Positions 23,203 to 47,525 of a stretch of DNA of 64,000 nucleotides are shown here, piece after piece (the first letter of the stretch is position 1; each line of letters opens with the position of its first letter). Under the pieces are notes generated by a model, which saw only the letters and a list, made by a program, of their open reading frames with translations, made no database searches and was not told where the DNA came from. Origin of the DNA: Psammoneis japonica (Eukaryota); the NCBI GenBank assembly GCA_008632985.1, contig QPGO01000117.1, positions 62,001-126,000 on the forward strand, written 5' to 3'. Both the position numbers and the translations under genes were made by a program.

Positions 23203-23318
23203 CACCAATGCAATCATGCAGTGGCATTGTTGACTCTAGAGCATCTGTTTTTTTCCACATTGCTGGTGTCCATCCCAATGAAGATCCACACACAATGGCG
23301 CAGTGCAAATGCCGTCCC

Positions 23319-24011
23319 TCATGGTGCGCCATTCCTCTTGCAATTTTCAAACTCCTGGACAGAAGCTTGCCATTCATCAAGCTTCTTCTTGTTCCTCTGT
23401 GCAACATTTCGATTTTTGTTTGGCTCATCCACAGAAAAATGTCCACATCGAACACATTGACAGCGCGCTTGGTCATCTGGCAGGTGTCCGCCGACAAGAA
23501 ACTTCCCATCGTGCTCTTCGGCCGTCAGGGGCACGACCACAGCCTGATCTTGATGCAAAGCAGTGTGATGAGCTGCATTTCTTGCTGACAATGCAATGTC
23601 CCTTGCTTGGCTGACAGCCTTTGTGATTGGGTCCGCCTGCCCGGCACGAGTGGCGCACTGCAGTTCTCCTTGCTTCCGCGCACGATCAAGCACATCATTC
23701 AAATCTGGCAATGCCGTTGCCATGGGCACTGCTCCAAAACTGGTCTCATTTAGCACAGCAACGGTGGAAGGAATGCATTTCCTGAACGCTTTGATGTCGT
23801 GGGTGTTCTCCACACCAATCCTGTTCTCAACTTCCGCCTTGTTTGTCATGAAGATCTCGATGACCTTCTTCTTCTCTGCCACCGCACCACAACTCGGTTC
23901 CCCCAGCTTGTCCAGCATTTTATCCCTCGTGGGACCATCCACATTGTCATGCTCGACAGTGTCACGTGGAGTTTCGGCATTTGATTCCCGTGCATGGACA
24001 CGGTTGTGCAC
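23319..24011 (-). pseudogene. Decayed ORF carried inside the MULE
   Basis: 230-aa protein-like ORF with a CxxCGH motif, no Tyr, no ATG start, TA-depleted. Confidence 0.45.
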
Positions 24012-24387
24012 AGCGTTTGCTTGCCATGGTCGACAAGAGACCTCGAGTGTGTTTCATGCGTCTCGGCGTCGGAGAGGTCGATCGAGATTCCGTTTTGGTG
24101 AAGAATGCTTTTATTCTACAAAGGAGCTCGGTGCGCTTCTACGTTGTGGTGAGAGCAGAATTTCTTTTGTGGTGATGGCAGAATCTTGCACGGTGTTCAG
24201 GCGCAGATCTTTCCACTGTGCGCACAAGCTTCGTGAGAAATTTGTGCACCAAAACAAATGCAAGCCAGCCGAGCCCAAAATTTCTCGCACCACACACTCA
24301 GCCACGCAGCGCATGGCCTGCACATTAACAAATTCAGTGGGAAACAGAGGACAGAGGGGAGGCATCTGTCACCATGTTGGGTGAACA

Positions 24388-24390
<3 letters not shown>

Positions 24391-24419
<29 letters not shown>
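24391..24419. repeat. (TGA)n microsatellite
   Basis: tgatgatgat... about 10 units. Confidence 0.95.
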
Positions 24420-24420
<1 letters not shown>

Positions 24421-25672
24421 CTGTGGAGATCTTTCTGCCAAGCAGGACGAGATGCTGCAGCAGTGACCTCAGCAAAGCCACAGTGTGCCACACAATCGCG
24501 GGATCACCTGCAGCTTGCAGCTCCAGCTTTGCAGGTGCAAGTGCAAAACAACCAAGGCATCCATTGAGGACATGCAACCTCCTCCCTTGCTTCAGCTGCT
24601 GCTGCAGACTGGGAGGGAAAAGAGAGCCCACTCTTGAAGCAGCACAACAAGCTGGCAGAAGAGGTGGGCTCTTGTGCAAATTTGACCAAGCAAGCATGAC
24701 CACAGAAACCACATTTTGCACATGCCTGTGTGCAATGTGTCCTCTTGTTCAATTTTCCATTTTCTCTCTAAAAATGATTTCTGTTGTGGATGTGGTGGCA
24801 GAAGTCAACAGCAGCAGCACAGGTCATGGCGGGGGTGGCAGACACACGTGCCAGCTGTGCTTTGCTTCTTGCACCCCCTCTCCTTTGTTGAACTGCATTC
24901 TCCTGAGCCAGGTGAGAATTGGCAACCCCAACATTGCTTTGTGAGTGCCTCCTGTGAACAATGAGTTGAAAGTTCATCCCAACACTGAGCCTGCTGTCAG
25001 CACCAGCCTCTTTGCCGCACAGCTCCTGATTGTGAAATGGCAGCCTTTTGCATCCCCCACCAGCCCATTGACAAGGACCAAGCTCATCTTGTCACACACT
25101 GGGGTTCCAAGGGGGCAAAATTTGCCTTGACCCTGTGCCCCATGGAGCCATGTTGGAAAAGGCATGAACAATGTCATGGGCAACACTTTGGTGTGGCTGA
25201 CTTGGCAAATGTTGAGTGCTGGAGAGCCCATTCTTTCTCATGGTGCAAATGCAATGACACCCTTTGAGAGCCTTCTTGTTTTCTGTGCCCATGTGCTTGC
25301 AAGACAGTTTCCACAGTTTGCAGCTGAAACAGTCTGCCCTCTCCTGTGTGTCAGTGCACACAGAATGCAGAGCACAATGTTCAACAGAGCCATCACAACA
25401 AAGACAGTCCCAGCAGTTGTTTCAACTTCTGCTTGCGTTGGCTTCTTGCATTGCAAATCCTTTGCATCATGGGTCGCAACCGCCCACATGGCGTCTGCAA
25501 AGGAGGGTCTGGACACCACTTCGATCAAATCGGCACAAATGGCGTCTTCGCTCAACTGTCGTTGAGCATCATTTACAAAGTAAGTGGGACTGGTGTTATC
25601 GCACTCTTCTTTCCAACACAGTGCACAAAAAGTCTGCAATGTTCCATAGAAGTCTTTTTGGACGTGTTCCAC
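24420..25672 (-). pseudogene. Decayed gene whose 5' end has normal composition and whose body is TA-depleted
   Basis: ORF 25238..25672 begins with Tyr-containing sequence (DFYGTL, PTYFV) then becomes Tyr-free and Cys-rich, and breaks. Confidence 0.4.
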
Positions 25673-28805: not shown

Positions 28806-28911
28806 CCTAGACTTTACCGATTACAAGACAACAAGCATTCATTCGACTGAAAAGAAAATGAAAAAAATCGCCAATCATCTCAAATGTATCAAATTTTATC
28901 TCAAACGTCTA

Positions 28912-31900
28912 AAAACAAATCGCAATCCATCATCATTTTTGACGTGAATGTTCATCGAAACAACAAAATCGCCAATCCTTTTCAATTCAGCGACACACCG
29001 TTGCCTCAAGGGATCGCGCATCCCAACCTCTCAGATCAGCTCCAGGCGTCCCCAGTGGGAAGATGGCGCGGGTCTGTCACTTCACAAGTGCTGAAGGGCC
29101 ACAGTCAAGTCTGACTCCTTCTCCCCAGACAGTGTGCTGCACTTTGCCCCATGCCATTGCCAAAAGAGCACCGCCAAGATGACAGTGGTGGAAACGGCAC
29201 CAGATTCCATCAACCACACAGTGTCCATTTTCTCATTCTAAAAAATTCATCTCAAACATCTCAAAAAAGAAAATCACCACTCGGACTGGCATTTTTTCGT
29301 CGACATTCTTCTCCATGATGTGCACATGTGACATGAACAGCAGCGACATCTTCGCACAAATTTGTTGCACAAATTGTTCTCTGTGTGTTGGTGTGGTGGC
29401 AGGCAGCATGTTCCAGCCAGGGGGGGTAGCTCAAAACAACTTTGTGTGGAACCTGGAGTCACGCACACATGTGTTGTCATTTGTGCAGCTCAGCAAAGAA
29501 GACATGCTCCAGCTCTGGGTGGGGTCTCACACTGCGGAACTGTGACATTGTTGTTTCGCTGACCAATGACCAACCTGTGGGCAAGTGGTTGAGAAGTTTT
29601 TTGTGTGCACTCATGTGCGCGTGTGTGCAAGTGTGTCACCCTCAAAAACCATTGAAAAAATGTGTGCAGATTGTGCAAAATCTGCGTTGTTGTTGGAAGC
29701 TTGCACGTGGTGATGTGCAGCAGGGGCTCCAGCAATGACTCACTCAAGAGTTCTGATGGGGTCAGGAACTCACAAAATGGCTCTTCCTGTGGAAAGGATG
29801 GAACTTTGTGCTGTCAGTTGTGACATTTTGCCTTCCTCCATTCATGAATGCTGTGGACAATGTGCAGCAACATTGTCAGCACATGTCAACTGCCACTTGG
29901 CTTGCATCATCATTTTCAGAGCATTTCTCAAGTTTCACATGTGTGCACATGCCTGACAGCATGGGATGTTGCACTGAGCAGTGGACAGTGCCTCCCCCCC
30001 AAAGGGCTCATTTTTGAGTTGTGCCACATGTCATGCACGTGCATTTCCATGTGACTTTGGTGGTGTTTTGCAGCATTTTGCAGTGCAACTGTTGGGCTCC
30101 TGTCTGTTTGGCAACTTTCAATATTTTTTGTGCAGTGCAGTTCTCAAATGTCTGAAGAATTGTGAGGTGCAGGTGGATTTCAAAAACAGCAAGCACATTG
30201 AGAGGCGCAATTGCACCACAAACTCGGTTGTGCGTTTGGACATCAAGGGCAAATTTGCCCATCAACCAACATGTTGAGCTGTGGAGCTTTGGTGCATGAA
30301 GAATTCTGTGGGCCCATGTCATGTAGAGTCCTGCCTGGGTGGGGCTGGAGGAACATGCCCAAATCAGCCACAGGGGTGCACTCACAACACTGCAGTGATC
30401 AGCAACGGCACAAATCATGCTGCTCCCACACCAAAAGCATTTTTGTTTTGTCAGTGCTCTGATGATCATGCCACTTCCTTGTGTGATGACACCAGCCAAA
30501 CAACTCTCACATTGATGAGTGCAAGAAGTGCAGCTTGGTTGGCACAGTTTGATTGTCACATGCATTTTGACAACAAGGGGCAGGACAAAACTGTGGTCTT
30601 TTGTTCTTGAAGTCTGGAAAATGTCACGGCTCTTGTTCAGAATTCACACTTGCTTGACAAGAATCCTGTGTTCTTAACAAGCACCAATCAATTGTGCACA
30701 AAGCAATTTTGACAATCTTTCCAACCTTCCAAGTGGGGCTCAATGCTCAAAACAAAAAATGGCCCTAATTCTCCATGTTTGATCTTGACAACAAGATTGC
30801 AGCCACAATGATTTTGAAATGATTCAGCTCATGTCTGCAATTAAAGTGACCTTCTAAACAGGAAATGATGGTCAATGAAATGTCTTGACAAGGGTGCAAT
30901 TGTGACTGCTTTCCAACATTGCTCATTTCTGACAATGACAACATTCATTCATCTCATTGAGACGCTTGCACATTGGCTGTGTGCAGCTTGCAATGTGATT
31001 TGTGCTGGCCATTTTTTATCATTTCCACAGTGAACATGTTTTTGCTTCCTGTTTCCTGCTCTTCCCTCTTTGGCTTTGTCCTGTCTCTCTGTCTCCTGCC
31101 AGTGCTCCCATGCTGCAGTGATGGTGTGATGTTTCACTGAGTGCACTGCCCCTTGCGGCTGCTCTTGCTCACCACAACCACGTTGTTTGTTCCATGTCAT
31201 GACCTTGTCTTTTTTGCTCATCACACCAGATTGCCAAAGCTTTGGCTCTGCAAAGAAGAGAAAAGAGCTTGCAACAGATCAGAGCATTGCATGTGTTTTG
31301 TTTCAACTGGGCTTGGCTTGGTGCAAACAGCATTTCTGCTCACCTTTGCATGCAACCTTGTCTCTTTTGTGTTTTGCACTGGTTTGCCAAAGCATTGCCT
31401 GCAAAGAAGAGAAAAGAGTGTGCAACAGATGAGAGCATTGTGTGTGTTTTGTTTTGAATGTGCTTGGTGCAAATGCTGTTTCTGCTCACCTTTGTGTGGC
31501 CCCTGCAGGGCTTTCTTCCCTTCTGGCTCCCCTTGCATGTCAACATGTCATTTGCTTGAAATCTCACGGCTGTGGCCCAACCACATCTGGTGCAGAAGCA
31601 AGCCATCAAAACAATGTGAGCGGCATGTTGCATGGGCTGAACATCACAGCCTGCACCACAATGAGCAAGAGTCCAGTTTGCAAGTGAGTGCATTTTCTCC
31701 AAAAAGCAAAACATCATTTTTCGGACAAACAACAAAAACAACAGCTGTGCTGCAAGAAAAAGAGTGTCATGGCAATGACAACAAGATGCGCATGTGATGG
31801 GAACATTTGACAACATGCAATGAATGTCATGTGTCAGCGCCAACTGAAAAAGTGATGATTTTCGGCTCATTCAGTTTTGGACAGAAATGAACAAAACAGT

Positions 31901-34800
31901 CATCATTTTTTTGCTCTGGTGGCACAGTGTGCTTCTGTGCCAAGAAGTTTGGCCACAGAAGCTGTTGGGTGGTGCAAGGCTCTGTGGCATTGATGATGTG
32001 GTGTGATGCAATCAACCATCATGTGATCAGCATCTTTTCTGGTGTGTTTTGTGTGGAAATCTCTGCAGAGCATGTGCCGTGGACAATGAGAGGGTTGTCA
32101 GAGCCATTTGTTGTTGCCAGAATCATCCATCATCCCAGCCCAGCCCGCCAGCTCACAAGAATCTCTGCAGCACAGGAGCCTGCTTGCCACAATGCCATGT
32201 GAGAAAGGGGCACATCACACATGAAGTTGCTTGTGTCATTGCAAGCTTGTGTCTTGCAGATTTTAGTGTCTTCCTGCATTCACACACATGTGCATGCAGC
32301 TGGAATGTTGTGTGCTGTGATGTGTGCAGACCACTGCACAATGCCCATCCCAGAGGTGCACAAATTGCATCTGTTGTTGCTCAGACTTCTGTCCTTTGTG
32401 TCTGAGGGGTCCATGCCAATTTCACTTGTGCGCTGCAGTGAGCTCACATCTTTCAAAAACAAGTCAAGACAGCAGCATTGTTGATGGAAACAGGTTGGGA
32501 AATCCTGGCAAAAGTGGGTCAAGCAAAATTTGGCACAAATGCCAAAAGCAAAGAGTGCAAACAGGGTCCCATGAATCACCAGAAAACTGTGCCAAAACTC
32601 CAAGTGTGAGCTGGCAATGGTGTGCACCAGTGGGCCGCTGGTTGCTGTTCTTGTCCCAATGGACAAAAAACATTGTCTGTGTGTGCCACAAACTCTTTCA
32701 ATGACACAGAAAGACAAAGACCTCAGAATGCAATGCCATCTCCAGCAGAAGTGGTGGTCTTGCCTTGAGAGTGTTTCTTTTGTTTTCATTTCATTGCTTT
32801 GCTTTTCCTGGCAGTGTTTGCTTTCTGCAAATTGCCAAAAATCTTGGGTCACAAAATTTGCCATTTTCCCACCTCAAAAACTGATGAAACACATTCATTG
32901 CATGACAACAACTCTGCATGGTTGCCACTCAAACCCATTTTCCTTTTAAGAGGTGCAAATCCCACCAGTTGAGAGGGGGGGCATCATGACATCATGATGA
33001 TGGCAAAGTGTTGTGGCTCATCTGGTTTGCCAGTTGTTCAGGCAGACAGTTGTTCAGGCAAACAGTTGATTGCCGGTTGTGCTCAATGACTCATGAGCTG
33101 CAGTCATGGGCAACACAGGCTCCGCTGCTGGCACAACAAACATGCACTGCATTGTTGGTGCCTGATGCAGCAGCAAGCAAAAGCAGGAAAACCAAAGCCA
33201 AGCTGCACCACAGAAACTGACAGACCCATTTCTGGCTTGATGCTTCTGAACATCTCCAAGTGACACACTGGGTTGATTGAGGGTCACTTGGAAATGTCTT
33301 TTTTCACATCAGAGCAGCTTCAGCAGCAACAACAAGCTGGAGAAGCAGACTCAGCATTGGGTCCATGCTGCACAGGAGCCATTTTGGCTTCCAACCAAGT
33401 TCTTGGCATGCCACATGCCAACCTTCATCTGCCATTTGCAACAATCAAGTGTTGGCTCAAAACAGCATCACTTGCAGGCCACTTGTTGCTGTTCCCACTG
33501 CAGACCTTGCACAGCCAGCCTGCTCAGATTTGAGGGCAATGGGCAAACAACTTAAATGAAAAAATTGCCTCATTTTGTGTGCTCCCTGTGGGATCCAGAG
33601 TGTGCAGCACATTTCAAATTCTGAGCTGCATTTTGCACTCTGTCTGCCTCTGTTTTGCCCGTTCCTTTTGTTTCTTTGATCTCTGCTCAAGTGTGCTTTG
33701 GGCTGGGAATCAGGGGCAACTGTGCTGCTTCCTGGCTTGCCACAAGCTAACATGGAAACATGTCCATGTGCAGCCATTCTTCCATTTGCTTTTCACATCT
33801 TCTGCTTGCTTGCACTTGGTGGCTTGAGGGCACTGGATGTGGGTGTCATGCTCACAAAAGATGGGATGGCTGATTTTGGCACATGGTTGTCTCTGTGTTT
33901 GTTGTTCAGAGTGAGTTGCTGTTTTGCTTTTGTGCTGCCATGCAGTGCTCCAAATTGCCCAGCTTGCAGGATTGGCTTGTCTTGGAAAGGAATGGCAGGC
34001 TGCAACTAGGCTCGCAAACCTGCTGACAGAGGCTTTCTCACAAGACAATGTTGGTTCCAACTCCAACAACATGCAGCACCCAGCAAAAAGACTTCTGGGT
34101 CCACTGGTGGTGTGCTGGTGAGCTGAGTGGCCCCTTGAATGATTGCCAGCAGGAGCTGCACCAGAGAAAACATCATGACAGCAGGGCCTTCAACAAGAAA
34201 CCAAGACTGCAGCTCTGCTGATGGACATTCTGGCTTCACTGTCATCCAACACTCAAGGTGTTGACTCACAAGCCCCCCAGCACCTCCTCACCTTTGCAGA
34301 CTGCACAGTGCACAGTCACTGCCACAGTCATCCTTGCCACCCAATCTTCCAACATTTTGTCCTTCTGTCTGTGAAGAAATGCACATGGTGGAGATGGAAC
34401 CTGAGCTCCTGTGTGGCTCAAGTTGGCTGCACCAAAGATGCAAAATTGTGAGCCAGTTGACAGCACTGTTGGATCATCAAATCCAGACAACTTTGGGTTG
34501 AACTTTGTTGTTGTGTGGTGATTCCAGGCTCAGATGGTGCTGGCAGTGCAGGAGCAGCAAGCCAAGTGATTCTGTCTGCACCATTTGATGAACCAACTGT
34601 GTTGGCTGAAACACCTCATCATGCTTGGCAGGTCAGTGTGCAACACACCATGCCTCACAGCAGCACAACATGTCTGAGAGTCCTCCCTCCATTGCCTTGA
34701 AAGTTGCCATGGCAAATGCCACCATGGGTGACTTGTTCCAGACTTGGGTGCACTCACGCGCGAAAAAATGACCCTTTTTGCATGAAACGCGCGGTCCACA
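28912..34800. other. TpA- and CpG-depleted block B with decayed gene/TE remnants
   Basis: No TA found in 31021-32263; about 14 TA in the whole 5.9 kb; CpG also rare; only fragmentary Cys/His-rich ORFs. Confidence 0.92.
31231..31498 (+). repeat. Direct duplication, about 118-bp units, 153-bp period
   Basis: ttgccaaagc...tgcaaagaagagaaaagag...tttctgctcacctttg at 31231 and 31384. Confidence 0.85.
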
Positions 34801-35640
34801 CTTGCGGTACCATTTTCGACAGTAAAAACATAACAATTTACAAATAATGTGTTGTTATGGGTACATACAGAATTGTCTTGTGCGTGTACCCATGTATTCG
34901 AAACTGTTGATGGACTCAGTTGTTAGTCGCTAAATTGTACCGTAAGTTGAGAGCTCGAATTTTCCGATGAGCGATTTATATATGCCTAAATGTAACAAGA
35001 AACATATAAAATATTATTAATATATATAAATTAAGTCTTTAACATAGCATAATTAATATTTTGTTTATATACGCAAATACGAGTTACACTCAACGGATCG
35101 AATAAAGCATACGTTGATTGATAAGTTTAGGACGACGTGAGAAGAAGTGTAGCTCAGCCCACGCAATGGCGTCGACTTCGGACCATTTTTCACGGTTTAA
35201 AAGGCATAAACGATTGATACACTTGAATCAGTCGAATATATTGAGGAAATATACATGGTAATAGAAAAGAAATGGTCCTTAGAGGCAAATTGTGAGTGAA
35301 TAGAGGCTCAATTGTTGTTGCTGACAGATTTAGCATTATTGTGCCGCGCTGCAGCCTTCAACAAGCATTTTCACTATTGTTGTTGATGACACAGACTATA
35401 TCAAATACGTAGATCCTGGTCATGACATTCAATTTTCCATAAGGCTGAAAAAAGTGGGCCGTCATGGTCACTGAAAGCCATGGCCGGTTTGGCTGTTTGT
35501 TTGTTCGAGTTTATTCTGTTTATTTTACTTAGAAGCCATTGATATGATCAATTTTATTAAATATGTACGGTGTTCAATAAAGCATTAAAAAATTATTTTT
35601 TCTGCGAAAAGGGGCATGTGCCCTAAGTCTGGAACAAGTC
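34730..35640. mobile_element. AT-rich non-autonomous TIR element (MITE-like), 911 bp, 4-bp TSD GGGT
   Basis: GACTTGTTCCAGACTTGGG (34730-34748) vs CCTAAGTCTGGAACAAGTC (35622-35640), 18/19 inverted match; GGGT at 34726-34729 and 35641-35644; similar subterminal motif; no ORF. Confidence 0.8.
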
Positions 35641-35682
35641 GGGTGATGCAGGCCATGTCACTTGATTCTTGCTGCAAGGCCA

Positions 35683-35959
35683 TGACAGGATTTGAATAGG
35701 ATTTGGGTGCGCGCGAAGTATCGCGCGCTGTTTAGTTTACCGCACACAGTTTTGTGTGCTTTAGTTCCGCGCGTTCACGCGCGATGTAGTTTGCTTTCGA
35801 GCCACAAGGCTCACAAGAATAATAACAGTAGCCCGATTATACCGACTTACACGTCTTTCGGCTCCTGTAACGGTCTCTGAGCGGAGACTCATCTGCTATT
35901 TAGACAGCAGCAAGGAGTTGTTGTTTTGAATTCTTGCCATTTGCCTTCAATTTCTGTCA
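35683..35959 (+). repeat. 5' LTR (277 bp)
   Basis: Direct repeat of 42507-42782; retains 15 TA sites. Confidence 0.97.
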
Positions 35960-36898
35960 GATTGACAGTCTTGCTCATTGTCAACCCATTGAGCAACCGC
36001 CATCGTCGTCGTTGATTTACCAACGACGCTATTTCAATCCCACGTGGACCTCCGTATGTGTTCTACATACATCGGCAAGTCTGCGCGCATTCAACACCAG
36101 GGCATCGGCAGGAAGTTAACGTCACCGTCAAGTCTCCTTGCCGCTGGATGTCTGGATTGATCACACTGCCTTTGATCGCTGAAGACACACATTCAACAGT
36201 CACATCCAAGTCTGTCCTTGATCAACATCCCTTGACACACCCATTCCTCGGTTAACGGTCAAGAACCCTGCATGTTCAAGGATCTCAGTCGCTGAAGACA
36301 TGCACACACACACACATCTTCACGGCCAAGAACCTTTGCCCACTCTTCGGACTGCGGTTTTGCCACCACTCTACAAGCACACCAAGTCCATTGCACCTGA
36401 TCTACCCCGGACTGCTGGTGCTCCACAGTTCTGCTGGGTCCACGAGGACGACTGTGAGAGCAAGTGGCCGTGATTGCAGCCTGCGTTGGGGCGAGGGTGC
36501 TTTCCCGCGTTTGTTCGTTCGTCCACAGCACCTGACGCCTGCGTCAACTGGCCAGCCTGATCGGGAAATCCAACCGATGTAAAATGAGAACGGTTCGGGG
36601 GTCTTGTCCACCTCTGGTCAGCTCACCCGCAGGGGTTTGCAACCCGCCACTCCGCTCGCAAGCAACCCAAAGCGCCGCCAGCTGCGGGTTCGGACGTGCC
36701 GGCACAACTCTGCGGACCGGATGGGAAGTTTGGCACTTGACAACGAACGGGATGGCAAAGCCCGGCGACTTCTGATTTTAAGACAGTTCAAGATTTCAAG
36801 TCAAGTCTGTTTCAAGTCAAGTCCATTCTCACCCAAGTTTCGAGTCTACCTTCGCTTCCCAACCAGAATTGATTGTCCTGACACCACTTTTGTCCACC

Positions 36899-39800
36899 AT
36901 GGTTCTCACTCGTCAGCAACAAACCGATGGTTTCGAGCACGTTGTTGGAACCGTGCTTGCCCAAGGTGCTGGGAGTCCTCTTCGTTTGGCTTTGGCCCAA
37001 GACGGCACGGACTCGCATCAGGAACTGTTCACGTTCATGCCGTCCCAAATCGACTCGCTTGAGTGCGACAACGGCACTGATGTGATCCCTTTGCCCCGTG
37101 GTTATAAGAACATGTTAGCAGCACTGGTCAGTCTGTGCGTTGTCAAAGCACACAAAGGTCTTGACGTTGCCAACGACCCCTCTTTGTTCACGCATGACGA
37201 GTTCCTTGCCTGCCGCCTCAGCCCCGACTGCATGTCTTCTGTGTCCATCGGCAGCTCACCCCTTGCACCTCCGCATGTCACCAACCCGACCAAGGCACGC
37301 GACCCGGTGCGGGACTTCAAGCGAGGCATCAAGCGTGATCCCACCGCTTTCACGGCTCTCAAATCCGACAAGCAGTGGCACACCTCACTTGTGGCACAAG
37401 TCCATGCCCAAGACGTCGAGTGCATTCTAGACTCGTCGTACAAACCGACCAGCCCCGAAGACAAACTGCTCTTTGCTGAACAGCAAAAGTGCATGTTCGC
37501 CGTCTTCGAACGCATCCTTCTCACCGACAAGGGCAAGGCTCTCATTCGCGAAAATGTGGGGTCTTCTGACGCACAGACCGTCTACCGCGCCTTGTCTGAG
37601 TGCGCGCTTGCCTCCACCTGAGCATCCATCGAGTCCTCCACCCTGCTCACGCACCTCACCACCGCACGTCTTGGTGATGGTGCTTGGAAAGGTCCGACCC
37701 ACGGGTTCATCCTTCATTGGCAAGATCAGTTGCGCAAGTACGAGGCACTCATCCCGGCCAGTGACCACTTCTCTGAAGGACAGAAGCGCGTCATGCTCGA
37801 GAATGCCGTGCACCCTGTCGAGGAACTCCGTGCTGTCAAGAACCAAGCTGATCAGCATCGTACGCAGAGTGGCAAGAGCCTCACATACGATCAATGCTGT
37901 GGCTTGCTCCTCTCCGCGGCAGCTCAGTGCAACAGTGCGTTTCAACCCAAGACGACACCTCGAGCTCCCCGACGCGCCACACACGCACACGACGTCTGCT
38001 CCGGGGAACCGTCCGACGATGTGTTCTACGACATTGACAGCGACATTGACGTCCTTCAGGCCAATGCTGCCTGCACCCGCGGTCCCAGCCTCACTGGTGA
38101 CCAATGGAGACGTCTCCCTCCCGACCACCAACGGCTCTGGGATTCGTTGCCCGATTCCTCCAAGGTGATCATCCTTGAGCATTCTCGTCCGCCTCCCCGC
38201 AACCCACGAGCCAGCCACTGCCATGAGTCTGTTACGGCCAACCTTCACGACCAACGCCTTGGGAGTGACGGTGATGTCAACTTGTCCAACACGACTCCTG
38301 CTGACTCTGGTGACTCCGCTCCACATGTGGACGCCACTTCGGACAATCCCATCCTGGCGCACCTCACCAAGCGCAAGCCACTGCCACCCGGTGATCTGCA
38401 ACGTCTGTTGTCTCCTAACCAAGCCCCCAATGCCAGTCGACCGGGGCCATCCGCCGCTTCCTCTACCCCGCCAGCTTCTGCAGATGACACAGAACTTGGC
38501 GGCCGCACTCACCGCCGCATCAACAACCACAATGTCATTTGCTCTGCCTCTGCTCATCGCTCCACACGCACTGGCGCTCTAGTCGATCGTGGGGCCAACG
38601 GCGGCATTGCTGGCGACGACGTTCGCGTCATTGCACGCACCTCTCGCCAAGTCGATGTTCAGGGCATTGACGATCATCAATTGGTGGACATCCCCATTGT
38701 CACCGCTGGTGCCGTCATTGAGACCCAGCGTGGTCCCGTCATCGCCATCCTCCATCAGTGCGCATGCACGGGCAAGGGCAAGACCATCCATTCCTGCGGC
38801 CAGCTCGAATGGTGCAAACAGGATGTCAACGATCGCTCTGTCAAGGTGCCCAACGGCTTGCAACGCATTGCCACTCCTGATGGCTGTGTCATCCCCATTG
38901 ACATCAAGGCTGGCCTGCCTTGTGTTGCCATGCGACCTTACACTGATGCCGAATGGGACACCCTGCCCCATGTCATCCTCACCGGTGATGACACATGGGA
39001 CCCTTCCGTCCTCGATCACTCTGTCACTGACGACGACCAGTGGTGCGACGCGATCTCTGACCTGCAGGACGATCCCACTGCCAACCTGTTTGACGAATGC
39101 GGCAACTGCCGTCATCGTGTCGTTGTCAACGAGACCATCTTGTCCGCTTCCTTGTCTGCCGATCACGCGTCCGCCCTCGATGATCACCTCATTCCGAACG
39201 ACGACGTGTTCTACGAGTGTCATCTGCATGCGATTGACCCCAAGGGCGATGACGTTCCACCTCCGGAGCGCACTGCACAGCCCAAGGACCCCCCCTTCGA
39301 GTCTCTTCGGCCTCACTTTGGCTTCCTACCTGCCGACACGGTCCGTCGTACTTTTGACTGCACCACGCAGTGCACCCGCATGCCCGCCGGTGCACACCTT
39401 CGCAAGGCCTGCAAATCACCCAACCCCGCCCTTGATGTGCACCGCCGCAACGAGCCCATCGCCACTGACACCGTTTGTGCCGACACCCCGGCCGTCGACT
39501 CTGGTTGCACCAGCGCCCAACTGTTTGTTGGCACCGAGTCTACTGTCACTGACGTCTGCGGCACTAAGACGGACAAAGAGTTTGTCAACACACTCGAGGA
39601 TCAGATCCGTGAACGTGGTGCCCCATCCAAACTCATTGGCGACCGTGCTCAAGTTGAGATCAGCAACAAAGTGCTCGGGATCCTACGCGCCCTCTTCATC
39701 TCCAGCTGGCAAAGTGAGCCTCACCAGCAACACCAAAACTTTGCCGAGCGTCGATGCCAGACCGTGAAGCGCATGGCGAACACTGTCATGGATCGTTTTG

Positions 39801-42559
39801 GTTCGCCCGCCCACACATGGCTGCTGGCACTCATGTGCGTGTGCTTCACACTCAACCATGCAGCGTCCCCATGTCTCCACTGGCGCACGCCCCTCGAGAC
39901 TCTCACTGGATCCACCCCGGACATCAGCCCATTGCTTCGCTTTCACTGGTGGGAACCCGTGTGCTTCCACCTCGATGACTCCGATTGGCCGTCCGAATCC
40001 CGTGAGTTGCGTGGACGCTTCGTTGGCATTGCTGAGCACGTCGGCCACCAGATGACCTTCAAGATTCTATCTGACGAGACTCAGAAGATCCTCCACCGGT
40101 CCAACGTCCGCTCCGCCACCCCCGATCCTGCCGTTCGAAACCTGCGTCTTGATCCTCCTGATGGGGAGCCACCTGAACCCATCATCAAATCTTGCCATGA
40201 CGACAACCCCGTCGATTCTCCTGATGGGGAGATCAGGACACCCAAGATGCCAGTTTTCGATCCGCAAGACATCATTGGACGCACCTTCCTCATGCAGCCA
40301 CAAGAGGACGGACAACGCCACAGAGCTCGCATCGTCAAGGCCGTCGAAGACCACGAATGGAAAGTGAACGGCAATCCCGAGCTCACTAAGTTCGTCTGCT
40401 CTGTCAACAATGACGAATGCGAGGAAGTCCTTGCCTGCAATGACATCATGAATCACATTGAGCAAGAAGATGAAGACACCACCATTTGGAAATTTCGACG
40501 CATCGTGTCACACGAAGGACCTCTGAAGCCTCACGACCCAACCTGGAAAGGCTCAAGCTACAACATCATGCTTGAATGGGAAAGTGGGGAGATCACGTCC
40601 GAGCCTCTTGCCATCATCGCCAAGGACGACCCCGTCACCTGTGCCATCTATGCACGAGAGAACGGACTCCTCGACACGGATGGCTGGAAGCGGTTCCGCA
40701 CCATCGCGAGGCGCCAAAAGAAGCTGTTTCGCATGGCCAACCAAGCCAAGCTTCGCTCCTTCCGCACTGCACCTCGCCACAAGTGCGGATGCGAAGTTCC
40801 CCAGAACTGCAAACACGCCATGTCACTAGACGAACGCAACGGCAACCGCAAGTGGGGAGACGCAACTGATCTCGAGATGGACCAACTCGACGAATACGAA
40901 GTCTTCCATGACTGCGGGCCCTTCAAGTCTTCCACTCCTCCTGCGGGACACAAGAAGATCCGAGTGCACCTGGTGTGCGATGTGAAACACGACGGTCGCC
41001 ACAAGGCACGACTCGTAGCCGACGGGCACCTCACGGACGTACCTGTCGACAGTGTCTACTCCGGAGCAGTCTCCCTCCGTGGCCTTCGGCTGATGATTTT
41101 CCTGGCCGAACTCAACGAGTTGGAGACATGGGCCACCGACATTGGCAATGCCCACCTTGAAGCCACCACCAAGGAGAAGCTTTACATTGTAGCTGGACCC
41201 GAATTTGGCAAACTCGAAGGACACATCCTTGTCATCCACAAGGCACTGTATGGACTGCGCAGCTCCGGTCTCCGCTGGCACGAGCACTTCGCCGACTGCC
41301 TGCGAGCTGAAGGCTTCTTCCCCTGCCGCGCCGAACCCGACATTTGGATGCGCAGGAACGGCGACCACTGTGAATGCATTGCCGTTTATGTGGATGACCT
41401 CGCCATTGCCATGAAGGACCCTCAATCTTTTGTCGACACTCTCACGGAAAAGTGCAAGTTCAAGCTCAAGGGTGCGGGACCCATTGAGTTCCATCTGGGT
41501 TGCGACTTTTCCCGGGACCCCGACGGAACCTTGTGCCTGTCTCCGCGCAAGTGCATCGAGCGCATGGTTGACAGCTGTGCCCAACTGTTTGGGGAGAAAC
41601 CTGCCACCAATGCCCTGTCACCTCTAGAGAAGGGTGACCACCCCGAACTGGACACTTCCGAACTGCTGGGACCCGATGGCATTCACAAGTTCCAGTCTCT
41701 TGTTGGTTCACTCCAATGGGCAGTGTCCCTTGGTCGAATTGACATTGCCACGGCCGTCATGTCACTCTCTAGCTTCCGAGCTGCGCCCCGTCAAGGCCAC
41801 TTGGATCGTGCCAAACGCATCTGTGGGTGCCTCTCCAAGATGCAACACGGTGCTCTCCGCGTTCGCACGGAAGAGCCCGACTGTTTGGATCTCCCTGCTC
41901 TGGCCTGTGAATGGATGCATTCCGTGCATGGTGAAGCAGAAGAGATGATCCCGAAGGACGCTCCACCGCCCCTTGGCAAGTTCGTCACTGCCACCCACTA
42001 CGTCGATGCAAACTTGTGCCATTGCATGCTCACCGGACGCTCTGTCATGGGAATGCTCCACTTCCTCAACAAATTCCCGGCTGATTGGTTCTCTAAGAAA
42101 CAAGCCACCGTGGAGACTGCGACCTGCGGGTCTGAATTTGTTGCCGCAAGGACTTGTGTTGAGCAGATTGTCAACCTGCACATCACCCTGCGCCACCTTG
42201 GCGTCCCGATCCGCAATGTCAGTTACATGTTCGGTGACAACAAGTCAGTTGTAGACAGTGCCACCATCCCGCACTCCAAGTTACACAAGCGACACACCGC
42301 ACTGTCGTTCCACCGTGTGCGTGAGGCAATTGCCTCTGGTTGCCTTGAGCTCCACTTCATCGAAGGCTCCCGCAACCCTGCTGACATTCTCAGCAAGCAT
42401 TGGGGTTGCTCCCAAATCTGGGACCTTCTCCGCCCCCTCATGTTCTGGAACTTCATTCCATCCAAAGTCGAATCTGTTTCTGTGGCTCCTCAAGCAAACT
42501 GGGGAGTGACAGGATTTGAATGGGATTTGGGTGCGCGCGAAGTGTCGCGCGCTGTTTAG
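36899..42559 (+). pseudogene. gag-pol polyprotein, one frame with a single internal TGA (37619-37621) and many Tyr->Cys/His substitutions
   Basis: ATG 36899 (MVLTRQ); protease LVDRGANGG; integrase ...SEPHQQHQNFAERR; RT KARLVADGH, KALYGLRSSG, YVDD; RNase H DNKSV, NPADILSK. ORFs 36869..37621 and 37730..42559 share a frame. Confidence 0.93.
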
Positions 42560-42782
42560 TTTGCCGCACACAGTTTTGTGTGCTTTAGTTCCACGCGTTC
42601 ACGCGCATGCAGTTTGCTTTCGAGCCACAAGGCTCACAAGAATGATGACAGCAGCCCGGTTGTGCCGACTTACACGTCTTTCGGCTCCTGTGACGGTCTC
42701 TGAGCGGAGACTCATCTGCCATTTAGACAGCAGCAAGGAGTCATTGTTTTGAATTCTTGCCATTTGCCTTCAATTTCTGTCA
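42507..42782 (+). repeat. 3' LTR (276 bp)
   Basis: Direct repeat of the 5' LTR; only 4 TA sites left. Confidence 0.97.
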
Positions 42783-44545
42783 GGCCAAAGCACCCAAAGT
42801 GTTTGTGGCTTGGTCAGAGTTGGTCCAGCAGACCCCAAGGAGTGCTTTTTTGCCTGACCCACAACTTTTGCAAAAGGGAGGGTTGCTTTTTTTATTGCTT
42901 GCAGGTGGATTTGACATGGTGCTGTGTGCACTTGCCAGCCCAGCTGCAAAGTCAAGTGCAGTTGGCATGGAGTGGTGCCCACCTGCCCCCACTCTCTCCT
43001 GATGCCTCATCCACTGCAATTTGAAACCAAGCAACATGCTTTTGACTCAGGATCAACAAGCATTGCCAGAAAAACATTGTGGTGTGAGCATTGCCAACAG
43101 CAGACAAGAGCACACTGGAGAAACTTGAAGCCACAGGTGAGCATGCTCTGGGTGAGTTTTCCCCTCCTGCAGAGTTTGCCCCCCTTGTGTGTGTGCAGTT
43201 TTGTGACACATTTCCTCTCTCACCTCCACTCTTGGTCTCAATGCCAAATTGAGACACATGGCTCCAGAGGTCATTTGGCAAGTGCTTCATTTAAGAAATG
43301 TCAACACACGCAGCTTTGGGGAGCCCTCTTAAACCAGCTGATTTCAAGAGAGATTCTGTTCTTGACACTCACACACTGAGGCTCTAATGATGCATGTGGC
43401 ACAACACGCAGCTGCAGAAGGTGTTGGGTGACACAAGATTGCAGTTTTCCTCTCCCAAAGAATTCAGGAGATCATTGCATTGTGCTGGCATCAGGACATT
43501 GCAGTGGCTCTGGCTGACACAGCCAGTGTCATCTTGTGCTGTTTTTTTTAGTTTGGTGTGGTTCCAGCATGTCTGTTGTGGCATCCTGTTCATGATTTTT
43601 CTTTTTGAAATGTCCTTGACGACATTCTCAAACATGTGTGTGTGCACACTCCAGCCATTCAACAGCTCTTCTTGACCAGCACCAAGGTGGGTGCATGTGT
43701 CACAATCAACTGACAATGTGCGCAACAGAGCCCATGCATGGGACTTGCTGGCAAAGTGCAAACAGACTGTTTGGCACTGGCGTGGCAAAGTTGCACAATT
43801 GACTTGTTTGGTGCAAGCTTCAAAGGATGGGTGCAGGTGTCAGGCACGTGTCTTTGACATTGTCATTGCAACTTGTTTTGTTTGGCTGCTGCATGCACAC
43901 TTCAGCAATCTCCTCTGGAGAAAGGTCTTTTTGGAGCATGGTGTGGCAGCATCTGCAGAAATTGTGCGGTGTGCCATTGCTGGACTGTGGTCACCTCTTT
44001 TCTGGAAGCTGCCTGCCCATCTCTCAACAGCAAAAGCAAGCCATGTTTGGTGCCTTTTCTGCAGAGCAGGTGTCACAAGTTGTGAAGTTGTCTGGTTTGG
44101 CAAATTTGCATTTTTTGTCAAATTTTCCACCAGGTCCCCCAGTTGTGCAGCTTCTGTGCTGATCAACCATGCACATGTTTTGTCTGTCTGTTCACTTGTC
44201 TTGTGCACACACTTGCTGGCATGGAGCAGCTGGGTCTCTTGAGAGCTTCATTGCCATGTGGTGAAGAACAATGGCAGCTGGAGAGGAGCATGGTGCTTTC
44301 ACTCTTGGTGACAGATGTCAGCATGTTCTGCAGAAAGTGGCAGCTGTTTGATCCACACATGTTGCCCAAAGTTGAGTCAGAATCTTTGCCTTGAGCACAG
44401 AAGAATGAGGCACTCACCACTTTAGCTTCCCCCAGAACTTTCTCTGTTTTTATGAACACACCTTTGTGCAAAGGACAGAGGCTTGCCAGTGACCCAATGA
44501 CACAGGTTGGCAGTCTCAGTCACACAAGATGTGGCTGTGTGGAGA

Positions 44546-44853
44546 GACTGGGTTGCACCAGCCACAGAGCTGCAGATCTCTGTTGTCCTCTGTGGTGCCT
44601 GGGTTGCACCAGCCACAGAGTCTTCTGTGGTGATTGGGTTGCACCAGTCACAGTGTCTTTTCTGCACTCTCAACTCTGTGCTGGTGACTGGGTTGCACAC
44701 TGGTTGCAGGATCTTCTGCATTCTGCGGAGACTGGGTTGCACAAGGTGCAGTCTCATCTGATCATTTGCTGTGCAAATGCATGAAATGAATGCTTTTGCA
44801 TCCCTTTCAAATGTTCTGGTTTCTACAGCAACTGGGCTGCACCAGTCACAGTC
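44546..44853 (+). repeat. Six dispersed copies of a ~22-bp quasi-palindrome GACTGGGTTGCACCAGTCACAG
   Basis: Copies near 44546, 44597, 44631, 44685, 44728 and 44829 with irregular spacing. Confidence 0.8.
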
Positions 44854-45609
44854 TCTTTTTGACATGTGCAAATGCTGCCAAAGAAATGATCTGGAATGTT
44901 TTTTTTTCAATTTTGAATTTTTCCACATGCTGTGGGTGGGGATGTTGCAGAAACGATGAAGAAACAAATTTCCTCAAATGAAAATGAGAGTTGTCTTGTT
45001 CAACAGAGGGTGTTCAGAGGTGCTTGGAATGGGGTGCAACCTTTTCATTGGCACTGCATCATTTGTCCAGATCAAGAGAGCAATGATGAAGTGACAGCCA
45101 TTTTTTCATGCTTCACTGTGCATCATGACTGAAAATTGTTGATTTGTTGCACGATGACTCACTTGCAGTTTTGGAGTGTCATTGCAGTTTTTATGATGCC
45201 AACAGTTGCCAACATCAAAAGCAGAAGCTCTCACATCTCCAACCATTCATCTGCCATGTCAACTGACTCTTCAGTTGGAGAGAACATGAAACAGCATTTG
45301 TCTCAGCTTTGCCACACTTCACCCCACAAAAATCAGCTGAGCACAAAAATGCATGCCTTTTTTGTGGCAAAACTGTGGTCACATCCAACAAGCACAAATT
45401 GAACCACACATTTTTTGTCCTTCTTCCTGTTGTCTTTTCCATGCTCAGAATTTCCCAGCACCCCCTTGGAACAGCAACCCATTTCATCCCATGCTGCAAG
45501 GAAAAAGAGAGCTGCCAGGAAACTGCCCAAATGGCCCCATCAGGCAATGCATCCATCTCCCACAAACTCTGGACTGTGCATTTCTTGGAGCCCCCCAATT
45601 GCTGTTGTG

Positions 45610-46150
45610 AGACAACTCGAGATGAAGCAAGATGAGCAGACATGAGATGACACCACTCGACCACTCAAGACAAGACCACACCACTGCAGATGAGACAAGA
45701 TGACTCAAGACAAGATGGTGCCACTCAAGATGAGAAGACACCACTTGAAACAAGATTGTGCACTGCTCTGGACAAGATGAGATGACACCACTTGAGAGAA
45801 GCAAGCTTGAAGCAAGAGGATGACTTGAGACATGACAACAACACTGGAGATGCAATGACACCACTCAATTCAGGATGAGATGACTCAAGACAGGATGGCA
45901 TCACTCAACATCAAAAGAGCTCCAGATGCTGCGATGCCACCTGAGACAAGATGGCACCACCTGAGACAGAAGCAACAAACTCCTTGAGAAATGAGACAAC
46001 TCAAGACATGAGCGACAACAACGCGGGATGCAACAACAACACTTGAGATTGGATGAGATGACTCGAGACATGATGACATCACTCAAGGTGCAATGAAACC
46101 ACTCAGACGTGGCAACAAGCCACATGAGACAAATCAAGACACAATGTTGC
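45610..46150 (+). repeat. Degenerate satellite (gagatgacaccactcaagacaagat-like)
   Basis: Recurrent gagatga / caccactcaaga / gacaagat words over about 540 bp. Confidence 0.75.
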
Positions 46151-46483
46151 ACGACACAACAACAACACACTGGGGCAGCATGGGCGGTGCACGCATGCAC
46201 GCATGCATGCATGCACTCTGCTGCATTGCAGTGTCCATCCATCTCACCCATGCAAACCACACCATTGCTCACATCGTCGCACTTCTTTTGTTCCTTGTTC
46301 TGCTGCAAAATGTAAAAGAAGATGACTCACACATCCACAATGGCAAGCAATGAGTTTGCCTTCCAGTTGCAAGAAACATTTGCTGCATTCAACAAAGAAA
46401 GTGTTGGATTTGTGGGCTGTTCATTGCAAAGAAGCACAGCAACTTGTCATTGAGATTGTCCAAAATGCTGCCCCCGTTGATTG

Positions 46484-47525
46484 TCACACATTGGTGAGTG
46501 CAAGGGTGCCAGGAAAACCACGCTGCTCCACCCAGTCCTTGAGGCTCAGATCTTTCTCCTCTTCTGAATTGTCAGTGCCAGATGGCACAGAGGATGAGGC
46601 CAGCAGCACGGAGACAGCAAGGTCCTCCAGTTTGATTGTTGGAATTGGTTGTCCCTCGGCTTTGGCCTGTGCTTTGAGATGTGCCTTGTACACTTCCACA
46701 ATGACAGCCACATCCTTCATTCCTGTGACACTGTTGATGATGGGCAAAACATTTGGGCTCATGTGTTCAAGGTTGCGCAACATCATCAACAGAACATGGT
46801 CAAAGAGAGCTTGAGCATCTGGCTCCAAAACCTTGTCCATTTTGCTGAGCATGTCTTGCACCATCATTCAAGTCTTGATGCATGAATGGGGAGCATCTTC
46901 CAGACATCTTCACTCAGAGCAAGGTGCTTGCAGAAGGCCTCCTCAATGGCAGCGGGGTCACTGAGAGCAGTTGGCTCCGCATCAACCCGGCTGTCCCTGA
47001 ACCAAAATCTGCAACATTTGATCTTTGCACTTCTTTCATCGAACACACTGCATGAAGTGGACACTGCTTCCAATGAGGAGGTTTTGTTGGACCATTGTCA
47101 TGCTGAAGAGGACAGGCTTTTGCTGGACTTTTCAAGTCCACCATTGGGCTGTGCACAGCTCCACTGATCAAGTTGTTTTCCTGACAGTGAGTGCTGCTGT
47201 TGCTGCACACATGCGCTGCCACATGCCCATCGATTTGTTTTCTGAGAAGGCATCAGGTTCTTTGTGTCCCTTTGGATTAGTTGCTCAAGATCACAGTGCT
47301 TTGCATCATCAAGTGCCGACACTGTTTGCAATGACACTTTGGTTGTGCCAGGCAGCAGGGGGAAAGCTTCTTGACCTCCTCATTCAATGTTCGACAGTCA
47401 CCACTTTTGACTTCTTTTTCATCTAAAATATTTTCCAGAGAAGCATCATTCAAAGGCTGAGGACCCAGTTTGAAAAAGGCAGTGGTTTGGACAACGGACA
47501 TGGCTGATAAGATGAGCTGCTCCAC
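46484..47525 (-). pseudogene. Decayed protein-coding gene of unknown family
   Basis: Consecutive protein-like fragments (47277..47525, 46864..47073, 46484..46867) broken by stops and frameshifts; nearly Tyr-free. Confidence 0.5.

Follow-up and report, generated by a model that had tools for sequence, protein, structure and literature searches.

The window, a stretch of 64 kb that was analysed as a whole, contains a young diatom LTR retrotransposon of the Ty1/copia type, the parts of which are listed in Table 1 together with features of the surrounding DNA. Assignment to Ty1/copia was indicated by direct TG...CA LTRs (277 and 276 bp) with a 5-bp target-site duplication (TSD) and by a Copia-type reverse transcriptase, the domain for which was present in 120 of 120 listed homologs. 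No integrase family was found by Pfam search of pol, even at E ≤ 1; the approximately 1100 residues upstream of the reverse transcriptase aligned full-length with 60 homologs of 1800–2000 aa. The gag-like ORF is ended by an in-frame TGA at 37619–37621, a position at which Lys is found in 41 of 60 homologs. Searches of the window for further copies or relics by blastn, tblastn and purine/pyrimidine-collapsed blastn gave only chance matches of 24–33 letters, and two loci found in metagenome contigs with a 20-nt LTR word were dismissed as chance hits because no alignment extended beyond that word. In read contigs, the summed word depth of the element was 67,000–119,000 as opposed to 60–67 for the flanks. 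These contigs represent one sample that is possibly the source of this assembly and therefore do not provide independent support for the window; no weight was given to stretches that contigs of runs X2–X4 left uncovered.

Table 1. Positions of the element, its parts and the neighbouring domains in the window.
Feature	Position	Strand	Remarks
Second non-genic domain	22300..25500		TA-poor with CG kept, 22.5–24.4 kb; no TA/CG, 24.4–25.5 kb
Left flanking domain, nearly free of TA and CG	28900..34755		Begins ~100 bp from ORF 25793–28813
AT-rich repeated insert, unconverted	34756..35650		Word depth ~4800 vs 60–67 in flanks
TSD GGCCA, left copy	35678..35682		Identical 5-mer at right end
5' LTR	35683..35959	+	277 bp, TG..CA ends; 15 TA kept; only 35919–20 (TG) looks converted
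5' edge interval of conversion tract	35897..35920	+	Between last unconverted and first converted site
Leader	35960..36781	+	From 36041 onward, CA/TG here where other family copies read TA
gag-like ORF	36782..37618	+	279 aa
pol ORF	37622..42559	+	1645 aa; same frame as gag
RVT_2 (Copia-type RT) in pol	40940..41569	+	aa 1107–1316; PF07727, E = 2e-25
3' LTR	42507..42782	+	276 bp; 4 TA remain, all TTA; 11 converted (8 TG, 3 CA)
TSD GGCCA, right copy	42783..42787		Identical to left copy
Right flanking domain, nearly free of TA and CG	42788..47450		Mostly single copy; read contigs word depth 60–67

The element lies in a unique non-genic domain of roughly 10 kb that is almost without TA and CG. Dinucleotide fractions in genic parts of the window were 0.037 for TA and 0.057 for CG as opposed to 0.0024 and 0.006, respectively, in the converted domains (10,540 bp), and CA plus TG rose from 0.142 to 0.240 between the same two classes with mononucleotide composition unchanged. 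The converted domains reach 0 TA and 0–2 CG per 100 bp over kilobases, and their limits are abrupt (about 100 bp or less) and close to gene ends; that on the right stops about 300 bp short of the next gene (ORF 47741–48784). Among 118 stop-to-stop ORFs of at least 70 aa from the TA/CG-free domains, none reached the Pfam curated cut-off. The AT-rich insert, which has inverted-repeat ends (about 34703–34760 and 35615–35668), and the U3 portion of the 5' LTR jointly form an unconverted island within the converted domain. Signs of conversion were also seen in duplicated sequence outside the element. Thus, in a pair of inverted-repeat arms (22015–22120 and 24084–24189), the arm inside the second non-genic domain carries CA at two sites where the other arm has TA and at one site where the other arm has CG, and a local duplicate in a converted domain shows eight CA-versus-TG double differences. 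A TA-rich stretch at 54680–54990 (TA/AT index of 2.41) was considered as a possible product of RIP but proved to be a low-complexity CTAG/TAGC repeat.

Alignment of 35683–35959 with 42507–42782 reproduced the 15 substituted positions and one 1-bp indel that the first-pass annotation had reported for the LTR pair, as well as its statements that transversions are absent (15 of 15 substitutions were transitions) and that the TSD is perfect, with GGCCA at both ends. The breakdown of differences given there was recovered in full: at 11 sites TA in the 5' LTR is opposed by TG (n = 8) or CA (n = 3) in the 3' LTR, and the others are CG versus CA at 35769, A versus G outside TA at 35836 and a double difference, TG versus CA, at 35919–20. 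The example string quoted in that annotation was likewise correct and sits at 35817–35843 in the 5' LTR and 42640–42666 in the 3' LTR. The indel is a G at 35783 that is missing from the 3' LTR; the G missing at 42606 is present in other copies (read contigs, depth 840/1494). Apart from its converted TA sites and the CA of the double difference, the 3' LTR carries one CG to CA change, one A to G change and the loss of one G.

These differences were strongly concentrated in TA. Twelve of the 15 substituted positions fall inside the 30 TA-dinucleotide positions (Fisher odds ratio 54, p = 1e-10), whereas outside TA and CG the LTR pair changed at 1 position in roughly 207. The TG/CA double is best explained by a single ancestral TA, converted independently in each LTR; if it is counted as one change per LTR, one LTR holds 14 of the 15 derived changes (binomial p = 0.001). 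On the same count, the share of 16 inferred ancestral TA that were converted is 12/16 for the 3' LTR and 1/16 for the 5' LTR (Fisher p = 0.0002). The earlier description of the 3' LTR as hit and the 5' LTR as spared was borne out in its first half and needs correction in its second, the 5' LTR being not wholly spared in view of 35919–20. The four TA common to both LTRs are all in TTA (chance 0.019). Within the 3' LTR, TA fell from 15 to 4 while CG fell from 20 to 18.

In the 5' LTR, the state of TA sites switches sharply, within 23 bp. Position 35897 is the last TA that is kept in the 5' LTR yet converted in the 3' LTR, and 35919–20 is the first converted 5'-LTR site. A TATTTAG motif occurs at 35897–35903, and the tract edge lies near the expected transcript start, with which it may coincide. 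Such a sharp change of state might also arise by gene conversion or recombination, with the 5' U3 overwritten from an unconverted copy or the remainder of the element from a converted copy, and the word depth of the element indicates that donors are abundant. However, the perfect TSD excludes an inter-locus crossover, and the absence of transversions between the LTRs, together with the presence of only one substitution outside TA and CG, is hard to reconcile with donors of this kind, as other copies show transversions nearby (36224, 36225 and 36247); about a quarter of 15,683 run X1 contigs (3840) are at least 99% alike, which also counts against it. We regard this explanation as improbable.

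The direction of change was determined from conserved coding sites. Across gag-pol read through 36782–42559, Tyr is shared by at least 80% of 60 outgroup Copia homologs at 39 columns. At these columns this copy has Tyr in 9, Cys (TGY) in 22, His (CAY) in 5, Phe in 2 and Trp in 1, i.e., 27 of 39 conserved Tyr codons are now TGY or CAY. The reverse change was absent, as none of 7 conserved Cys and 29 conserved His columns became Tyr. In keeping with a slower change at CG than at TA, no conserved Arg was replaced by Cys, His, Gln or Trp. Among 120 homologs, the number of Cys plus His residues at the Tyr columns was 0 in 90, 1 in 21, 2 in 7 and 3 in 2, compared with 27 in the query. The converted share was alike in the 3' LTR (11/15) and the body (27/39), amounting to about 73% of TA sites across both. 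The claim of rapid mutation in the first-pass annotation can be upheld in a relative sense, against the background rate outside TA and CG noted above.

Variation among other copies of the family was consistent with the same direction. Of 681 variants, 40 were listed, with 33 inside the element and none in the LTRs, and among these 33 there were 20 single and two double sites with CA or TG here and TA elsewhere. At several leader sites, T made up only 16–37% of other-copy depth, so that a consensus by plain majority would show CA. This low share is read as a probable family-wide conversion of these non-coding sites. At position 37740, this copy keeps TAC whereas all other contigs have TGC, and Tyr is found in 59 of 60 outgroups. 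Polarisation of the LTR differences with the family consensus, the check proposed in the first-pass annotation, is unsafe for this family because most copies can themselves be converted; thus, a family's majority consensus can itself represent the mutated state. Because a single template gives rise to both LTRs of an insertion, the LTR differences post-date integration, and the Tyr columns, the TA of other copies in the leader and the restriction of shared TA to TTA support change from TA to TG or CA. The earlier proposal that the mutations arose in place after integration is therefore supported.

An opposite, RIP-like history would start from an ancestral LTR with TG and CA, in which the 5' LTR gained 11 TA through C to T change at CpA on either strand. 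By themselves, the 11 differences fit both directions, most other-copy depth has the CA of this copy at several leader sites, and contig letters suggest that at least one other copy is in the TG..TG..CA state of the 3' LTR. The body, however, went the opposite way at the conserved Tyr columns, because of which two opposite processes would have to meet at the LTR edge; in addition, the CG/CA, GA/GG and TG/CA differences would be left unexplained and the occurrence of all four shared TA in TTA would be a coincidence. This history is very unlikely.

Following the second jump of reverse transcription, minus-strand U3-R-U5 is single-stranded again. A deaminase acting before integration could exploit this renewed exposure: once plus-strand strong-stop DNA has been copied, it would attack the minus-strand cDNA that is to become the 3' LTR and so produce edits specific to that LTR. 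Deamination of minus-strand adenine, however, gives only T to C on the plus strand, whereas 8 of 12 3'-LTR changes are A to G on the plus strand, and the same conversions are carried by single-copy, non-retroelement flanks and by an inverted-repeat arm, which leaves little credence for such editing. An artefact, in which heterochromatic TpA and CpG with modified bases were mis-called as TG or CA, is the least credible explanation: the domains look almost too clean and the sole read set found comes from one sample, but exact-word read contigs reproduce the TA/CG-free flanks at an even depth of 60–67 with 1–6 other letters per 1.6–3.2 kb, strand-specific mis-calling would make the strands conflict rather than yield clean TG or CA, and partial site-by-site mosaics vary among copies.

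The direction of change, its timing after integration, its one-sidedness, its dinucleotide specificity, the resistance of TTA and TAA, its restriction to domains and the separate rates for TA and CG point to a process of DNA mutation so far not described, which depends on position and affects both mobile and non-genic DNA. Our main reading, to which we give a probability of roughly 0.7, is that a DNA-level process, targeted in cis by position, converts TpA to TpG or CpA after integration and explains both the element and the domains. The change would be an A:T to G:C transition at the adenine of either strand, with about three quarters of TA converted from the last 40–60 bp or so of the 5' LTR through the leader, the ORFs and the end of the 3' LTR, and the first 215 bp or so (U3) of the 5' LTR left untouched. 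The comparison of LTRs within a pair separates homology-guided from position-guided targeting; as the two LTRs were identical in sequence, targeting cannot rest on sequence homology alone. Position must instead be the cue in cis, set either by the transcription unit (between the R regions of the two LTRs) or by chromatin state. Transcription alone cannot be the trigger because ordinary transcribed genes next door are unconverted. The surrounding old non-genic DNA probably represents the same process run to completion, together with a much slower loss of CpG (CG to TG or CA).

Effects of sequence context and strand bear on the possible chemistry. TTA and TAA contexts resist conversion: of the 25 TA that survive in the converted flanks, 20 lie in these contexts compared with 37% expected (p = 2e-5). 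Similar comparisons within the element showed trends only, both for Tyr codons preceded by T (4 of 14 kept, 3 of 34 converted, p = 0.17) and for the LTR (p = 0.10). Strand outcomes were 27 TG to 7 CA for Tyr codons of the ORFs and 7 TG to 15 CA for the leader, a choice of strand that does not agree with a simple displaced-strand model. The order of CA and TG was examined by runs tests in the element, in four domains (three converted and one TA-poor with CG retained) and in three normal regions, all with |z| ≤ 2.1, and in an ordered series of 69 inferred conversions strand coordination was weak (permutation p = 0.04). Our best guess for the chemistry is enzymatic adenine deamination at TpA, cis-acting and limited by transcription unit or chromatin; the agent could be, for example, a TadA/ADAT-like deaminase acting on DNA exposed while silenced elements are transcribed. 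ADAR, fungal ADAT2/3-derived editors and TadA base editors all have an A to G outcome and prefer a 5' U or T neighbour. Natural A-to-I editors act on RNA, although engineered base editors demonstrate that dA in displaced single-stranded DNA is open to deamination by a TadA-type enzyme.

Among known systems, RIP of ascomycete fungi resembles the present pattern in being a dense, transition-only, dinucleotide-specific mutation of transposons in place, which destroys the coding potential of the elements and results in domains of distinct composition next to intact genes. In contrast, RIP changes C:G to T:A at CpA and makes TpA, which is destroyed here by A:T to G:C change; it mutates both copies of a duplicate and is triggered by duplication, whereas here identical LTRs were treated differently and single-copy DNA was also converted; it creates stop codons, whereas here TAA and TAG are removed and long open frames remain; and it occurs in fungi, whereas the present host is a diatom. 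Thus, neither the CpA to TpA direction nor mutation of both copies was found. RIP also acts before meiosis and requires a RID-type methyltransferase. Decay of 5-methylcytosine at CpG would account for the CG to TG or CA half of the old domains, where alone a CpG deficit with a matching excess of TpG and CpA was found, but does not explain the loss of TA, which in the LTR was far faster. With A-to-I RNA editing, edits in U3 would enter both LTRs, whereas the LTRs differ here and the changes, with both TG and CA outcomes, are fixed in DNA on both strands after integration. Like the process proposed here, APOBEC3 is a host deaminase that leaves context-specific transition clusters in retroelements, but its C to U change on minus-strand cDNA (G to A), strand-pure and prior to integration, does not fit in any of these respects. 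Excerpts of PMC9998398 describe diatom transposable elements as CpG-methylated and many diatoms as carriers of DNMT4 enzymes related to fungal RID, with function unknown. Searches of the literature yielded no report of TA to TG/CA hypermutation or of TA/CG-free domains, and a look-up of terms in PMC2806351 and in preprint 10.1101/2025.10.24.684338 gave no instance of RIP, hypermutation, deamination or dinucleotide.

A broader reading, which is tentative and on balance doubtful, is that diatoms possess a natural genome defence resembling an adenine base editor, recruited in cis to silenced transposon transcription units and heterochromatin, which would erase TpA within the time of about one ordinary substitution per LTR pair and, with CpG decay, empty non-genic DNA of TA and CG. 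If the pattern is real genome-wide, it would represent, in one of the major groups of marine algae, transposon-directed hypermutation with a chemistry opposite to that of RIP (A:T to G:C at TpA); it would also provide a readout, from sequence only, of DNA treated by the cell as silenced. The implied enzyme, which would act on adenine in DNA by a simple dinucleotide rule, would be of interest for base-editing tools. LTR-divergence dating would inflate the age of this element roughly ten-fold, as approximately 1–3 of the 15 differences are ordinary. Finally, TGA is the sole stop codon left in DNA that lacks TA, and dead elements and junk therefore show long frames that gene finders will call; the element holds 44 ORFs of at least 80 aa.

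Pairwise alignment of the two LTRs of the Ty1/copia-type element, which are real LTRs and have the same 5-mer on either side of the pair, revealed 15 substituted positions, all of them transitions, and one 1-bp indel. TA in the 5' LTR was opposed by TG (8) or CA (3) in the 3' LTR at 11 sites, CG by CA at one site (35769), A by G outside TA at one site (35836) and TG by CA at one double site (35919-20). TA dinucleotides accounted for 30 positions and held 12 of the 15 substitutions (odds ratio 54, p = 1e-10). By this alignment, the counts in the first-pass annotation were right throughout, as were its claims that transversions were lacking (15/15 transitions) and that the target-site duplication was perfect, GGCCA being identical at both ends. 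The G absent from the 3' LTR at 42606 was present in other family copies among the read contigs.

The direction of change was indicated by conserved coding sites. The read-through polyprotein was aligned with 60 full-length homologs, drawn from the 77 of 1800-2000 aa among 120 fetched, and columns were scored as conserved where at least 80% of homologs agreed. At the 39 conserved Tyr columns, the element carried Tyr at 9, Cys at 22, His at 5, Phe at 2 and Trp at 1, with TGY and CAY codons at the Cys and His positions, and the opposite change, Tyr at a conserved Cys (0/7) or His (0/29) column of the element, was not found. Cys and His together numbered 27 at these columns in this copy and, among the 120 homologs, 0 in 90, 1 in 21, 2 in 7 and 3 in 2. 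The comparison shows that both TA to TG and TA to CA changes took place in this copy, in agreement with the direction proposed from the sequence alone. No conserved Arg column had turned to Cys, His, Gln or Trp in the element, indicating that its CpG were hardly touched.

Other family copies were represented by contigs from a read set of one sample (four coded runs), which may be the assembly's own, placed on 29000-48000 at 80% likeness. Word depth was 60-67 in unique flanks versus a sum of 67,000-119,000 in the element, indicating that the family is very abundant. Variants in the read contigs were mostly transitions, namely A>G (160), T>C (158), C>T (115) and G>A (123), with 10-22 of each transversion. 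Forty of 681 variant rows were classified by script, 33 of them inside the element. These 33 included 20 single rows with CA or TG in this copy and the TA-making letter in other copies, two double sites (36679-80 and 36808-9) at which this copy had CA and the others TG, or vice versa, four rows that involved CG, five unrelated changes and one site (37740) at which the Tyr codon TAC was kept in this copy and was TGC in every other contig. The share of the TA-making letter among copies ranged from 0.16 to 0.99 by site, and at many of the sites classified the converted state was that of most copies. Thus, a majority consensus would represent the mutated state there, and polarisation with the family consensus, the test put forward in the first-pass annotation, can mislead. 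Apart from the indel at 42606, no LTR position occurred among the 40 rows classified, and a metagenome scan for LTR copies returned chance matches only.

LTR polarity was argued from four indirect lines rather than by direct family polarisation, and these lines agree on TA to TG/CA. Gain of TA in the 5' LTR, as by repeat-induced point mutation (RIP) of fungi, would need a second, opposite process limited to the 5' LTR, because the body of the element went from TA to TG/CA; this RIP-like alternative fits less well. The converted fractions of the 3' LTR (11/15) and body (27/39) were counted as equal. All four TA retained in both LTRs lay within TTA, the chance that four ordinary TA would all sit in a TTA-type context being 0.019, and residual TA in fully converted flanks was in TTA or TAA at 20 of 25 sites versus 37% expected from the window's genic parts (p = 2e-5). 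The CG to CA change and the stray A to G were both on the 3' LTR side, consistent with the same polarity. The double at 35919-20 fits one ancestral TA that would have been converted separately in each LTR. TG/CA doubles are otherwise rare but were frequent here, with eight in one 150-bp local duplicate within a converted domain.

With the double counted as ancestral TA, 1/16 sites was converted in the 5' LTR versus 12/16 in the 3' LTR (p = 0.0002). The earlier description of the 3' LTR as hit was thus upheld, and that of the 5' LTR as spared applies to 15 of 16 sites, the exception being the double. The edge of the tract was sharp: the 5' LTR retained TA at 35897, a site converted in the 3' LTR, and both LTRs were converted at the next site that was informative (35919-20). 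From 36041 onward, conversions extended through leader, ORFs and 3' LTR. The tract started 40-62 bp upstream of the 5' LTR end, directly after a TATTTAG motif, at what would be the expected U3/R junction of an LTR element; the unconverted island (34756-35918) consisted of a ~900-bp insert and the U3 of the 5' LTR. Since the two U3 copies were originally identical in sequence, the asymmetry goes beyond purely homology-guided targeting, and RIP-type pairing or free small RNAs acting alone are excluded. A cis cue is needed, which could be the nascent transcript, the transcription bubble or promoter versus body chromatin state.

The signature was specific for TpA, with TTA/TAA resistant, and included both TG and CA outcomes, so that adenine (or thymine) of either strand can change. 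TG:CA was 27:7 at Tyr codons (columns of at least 60% conservation; p = 0.0008), 8:4 in the 3' LTR and 7:15 in the leader, strand choice being patchy (leader vs rest, p = 0.001). Editing of minus-strand cDNA before integration fits less well, as it predicts changes of the CA type only whereas 8/12 were of the TG type. In the 3' LTR, 73% of TA was lost, compared with one substitution among the roughly 207 positions that belong to neither TA nor CG. The per-site rate is thus roughly two orders of magnitude over background, and the term "rapidly" used earlier applies in this relative sense only; the CG count of the 3' LTR fell only from 20 to 18. Among five events listed between read contigs and assembly in single-copy flanks, one was TA/TG and two were TG/CA doubles; these small numbers hint at allelic, separately converted sites and ongoing conversion.

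Sliding indices placed the element within a far larger TA/CG anomaly.

Features of the element and surrounding domains (window positions)
Feature	Position	Description
5' LTR	35683-35959	starts TG, ends CA; GGCCA flank
3' LTR	42507-42782	starts TG, ends CA; GGCCA flank
First ORF	interior of element	279 aa
Second ORF	interior of element	1645 aa; frame of first ORF, after single TGA
Non-genic domain	about 22.3-25.5 kb	sliding indices
Stretch almost without TA and CG	24400-25500	
Non-genic domain	28.9-34.75 kb (28900-34755)	sliding indices; two insertions separate it from right-hand part
Non-genic domain	42.79-47.45 kb (42788-47450)	sliding indices; right of element
Repeated AT-rich insert, ~900 bp	34703-35668	inverted-repeat ends, ~75-fold word depth; between left domain and 5' LTR
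Flank sites, read contigs vs assembly	29428, 29874-29875, 31224-31225	TA/TG or TG/CA double

Converted domains (10,540 bp) contained 25 TA and 63 CG, compared with 1524 and 2364 across the 41,302 bp of genic DNA, and the CA+TG share of dinucleotides rose from 0.142 to 0.240 with the same mononucleotide composition. Their borders were sharp (~100 bp) and 100-300 bp from flanking ORFs; the domains were mostly single copy by read-contig word depth, and Pfam recognised no coding content in them. At 22.5-24.4 kb, TA was lost (0-3 per 100 bp) and CG kept, as in the retrotransposon body, a pattern suggesting that TA goes first and CG later. A second internal control is an inverted repeat of which one arm (22015-22120) lies outside the domain and the other (24084-24189) within it; in the inner arm, CA stood in place of TA at two sites and of CG at one. 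The AT-rich insert, which may be a non-autonomous DNA transposon, was unconverted though inside a converted domain; its left arm had TG at two sites where the right arm had TA and CG. Two DUF5710 repeats occur in a 1006-aa ORF (25793-28813) whose own TA and CG content was normal and which has converted domains on both sides. Degenerate repeats in a 20-nt register (a 60-nt unit present six times at 62-80% likeness) lay at 45669-46106 within a TA/CG-free domain. A short intergenic CTAG/TAGC/AGTAG-rich low-complexity region (54680-54990; TA/AT index 2.41) was unconverted, so that TA loss is not genome-wide.

These results, which cover a single window, insertion and read set, demonstrate a transition process that acts on DNA after integration, is specific for TpA, is confined to certain domains and is read in cis. 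The in-place, position-dependent mutation proposed earlier is supported by the direction in the body, the unequal conversion of the LTRs and the originally identical U3 copies. Gene conversion from another copy and a base-modification artefact also fit less well, and none of the four rivals fits as well as conversion of TA to TG/CA in place. The chemistry would be adenine deamination at TpA, because hypoxanthine pairs as G and offers the only simple route from A:T to G:C; an enzyme would be needed because TA loss far outpaces loss of methylatable CG. A candidate is a TadA/ADAT-like deaminase, since enzymes of this family favour U/T on the 5' side and are able to act on displaced single-stranded DNA. 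Recruitment would probably take place during transcription within silenced DNA, given that the ordinary transcribed genes nearby show no conversion. The loss of CG from old domains would most simply be methyl-CpG decay. The closest known system is RIP, which the present process resembles in effect and from which it differs in direction and base and in dependence on duplication. Many diatoms are described as carrying enzymes of the DNMT4 type, which are related to fungal RID and have an unknown function (PMC9998398). A full-text literature search, with terms in diatom transposon papers, found no description of TA to TG/CA hypermutation or TA/CG-free domains. The process is treated here as a previously undescribed form of transposon-directed hypermutation; a bolder and less probable reading would be a defence of a new class, based on a DNA adenine deaminase.

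Pfam found RVT_2, the Copia-type RT domain, in the 1645-aa ORF and no integrase match in the element's ORFs. This ORF had 2290 relatives in the database, the best 120 of which were 50-72% identical (most 62-72%) and came nearly always from ~7-kb environmental contigs. The in-frame TGA (37619-37621) that parts the gag-like and pol ORFs, where homologs have Lys (41/60) or Arg (3/60), is possibly a CGA to TGA change. Forty-four ORFs of at least 80 aa overlapped the element (35600-42900) across all six frames. Stop codons are few in TA-poor DNA, which makes it a trap for gene finders. Adjacent genes, with few introns and tightly packed, included an ABCG-type transporter, CCT-zeta, alpha-galactosidase, a UAA transporter and others. 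The nearest named relatives of CCT-zeta were from diatoms (77-83% identity), which identifies the host as a diatom. The ABCG-type gene (9409-14233) extended across three ORFs that overlap or adjoin one another (9409-11436, 11135-12286 and 12935-14233); it is a full-size transporter that has either short introns or frame changes.
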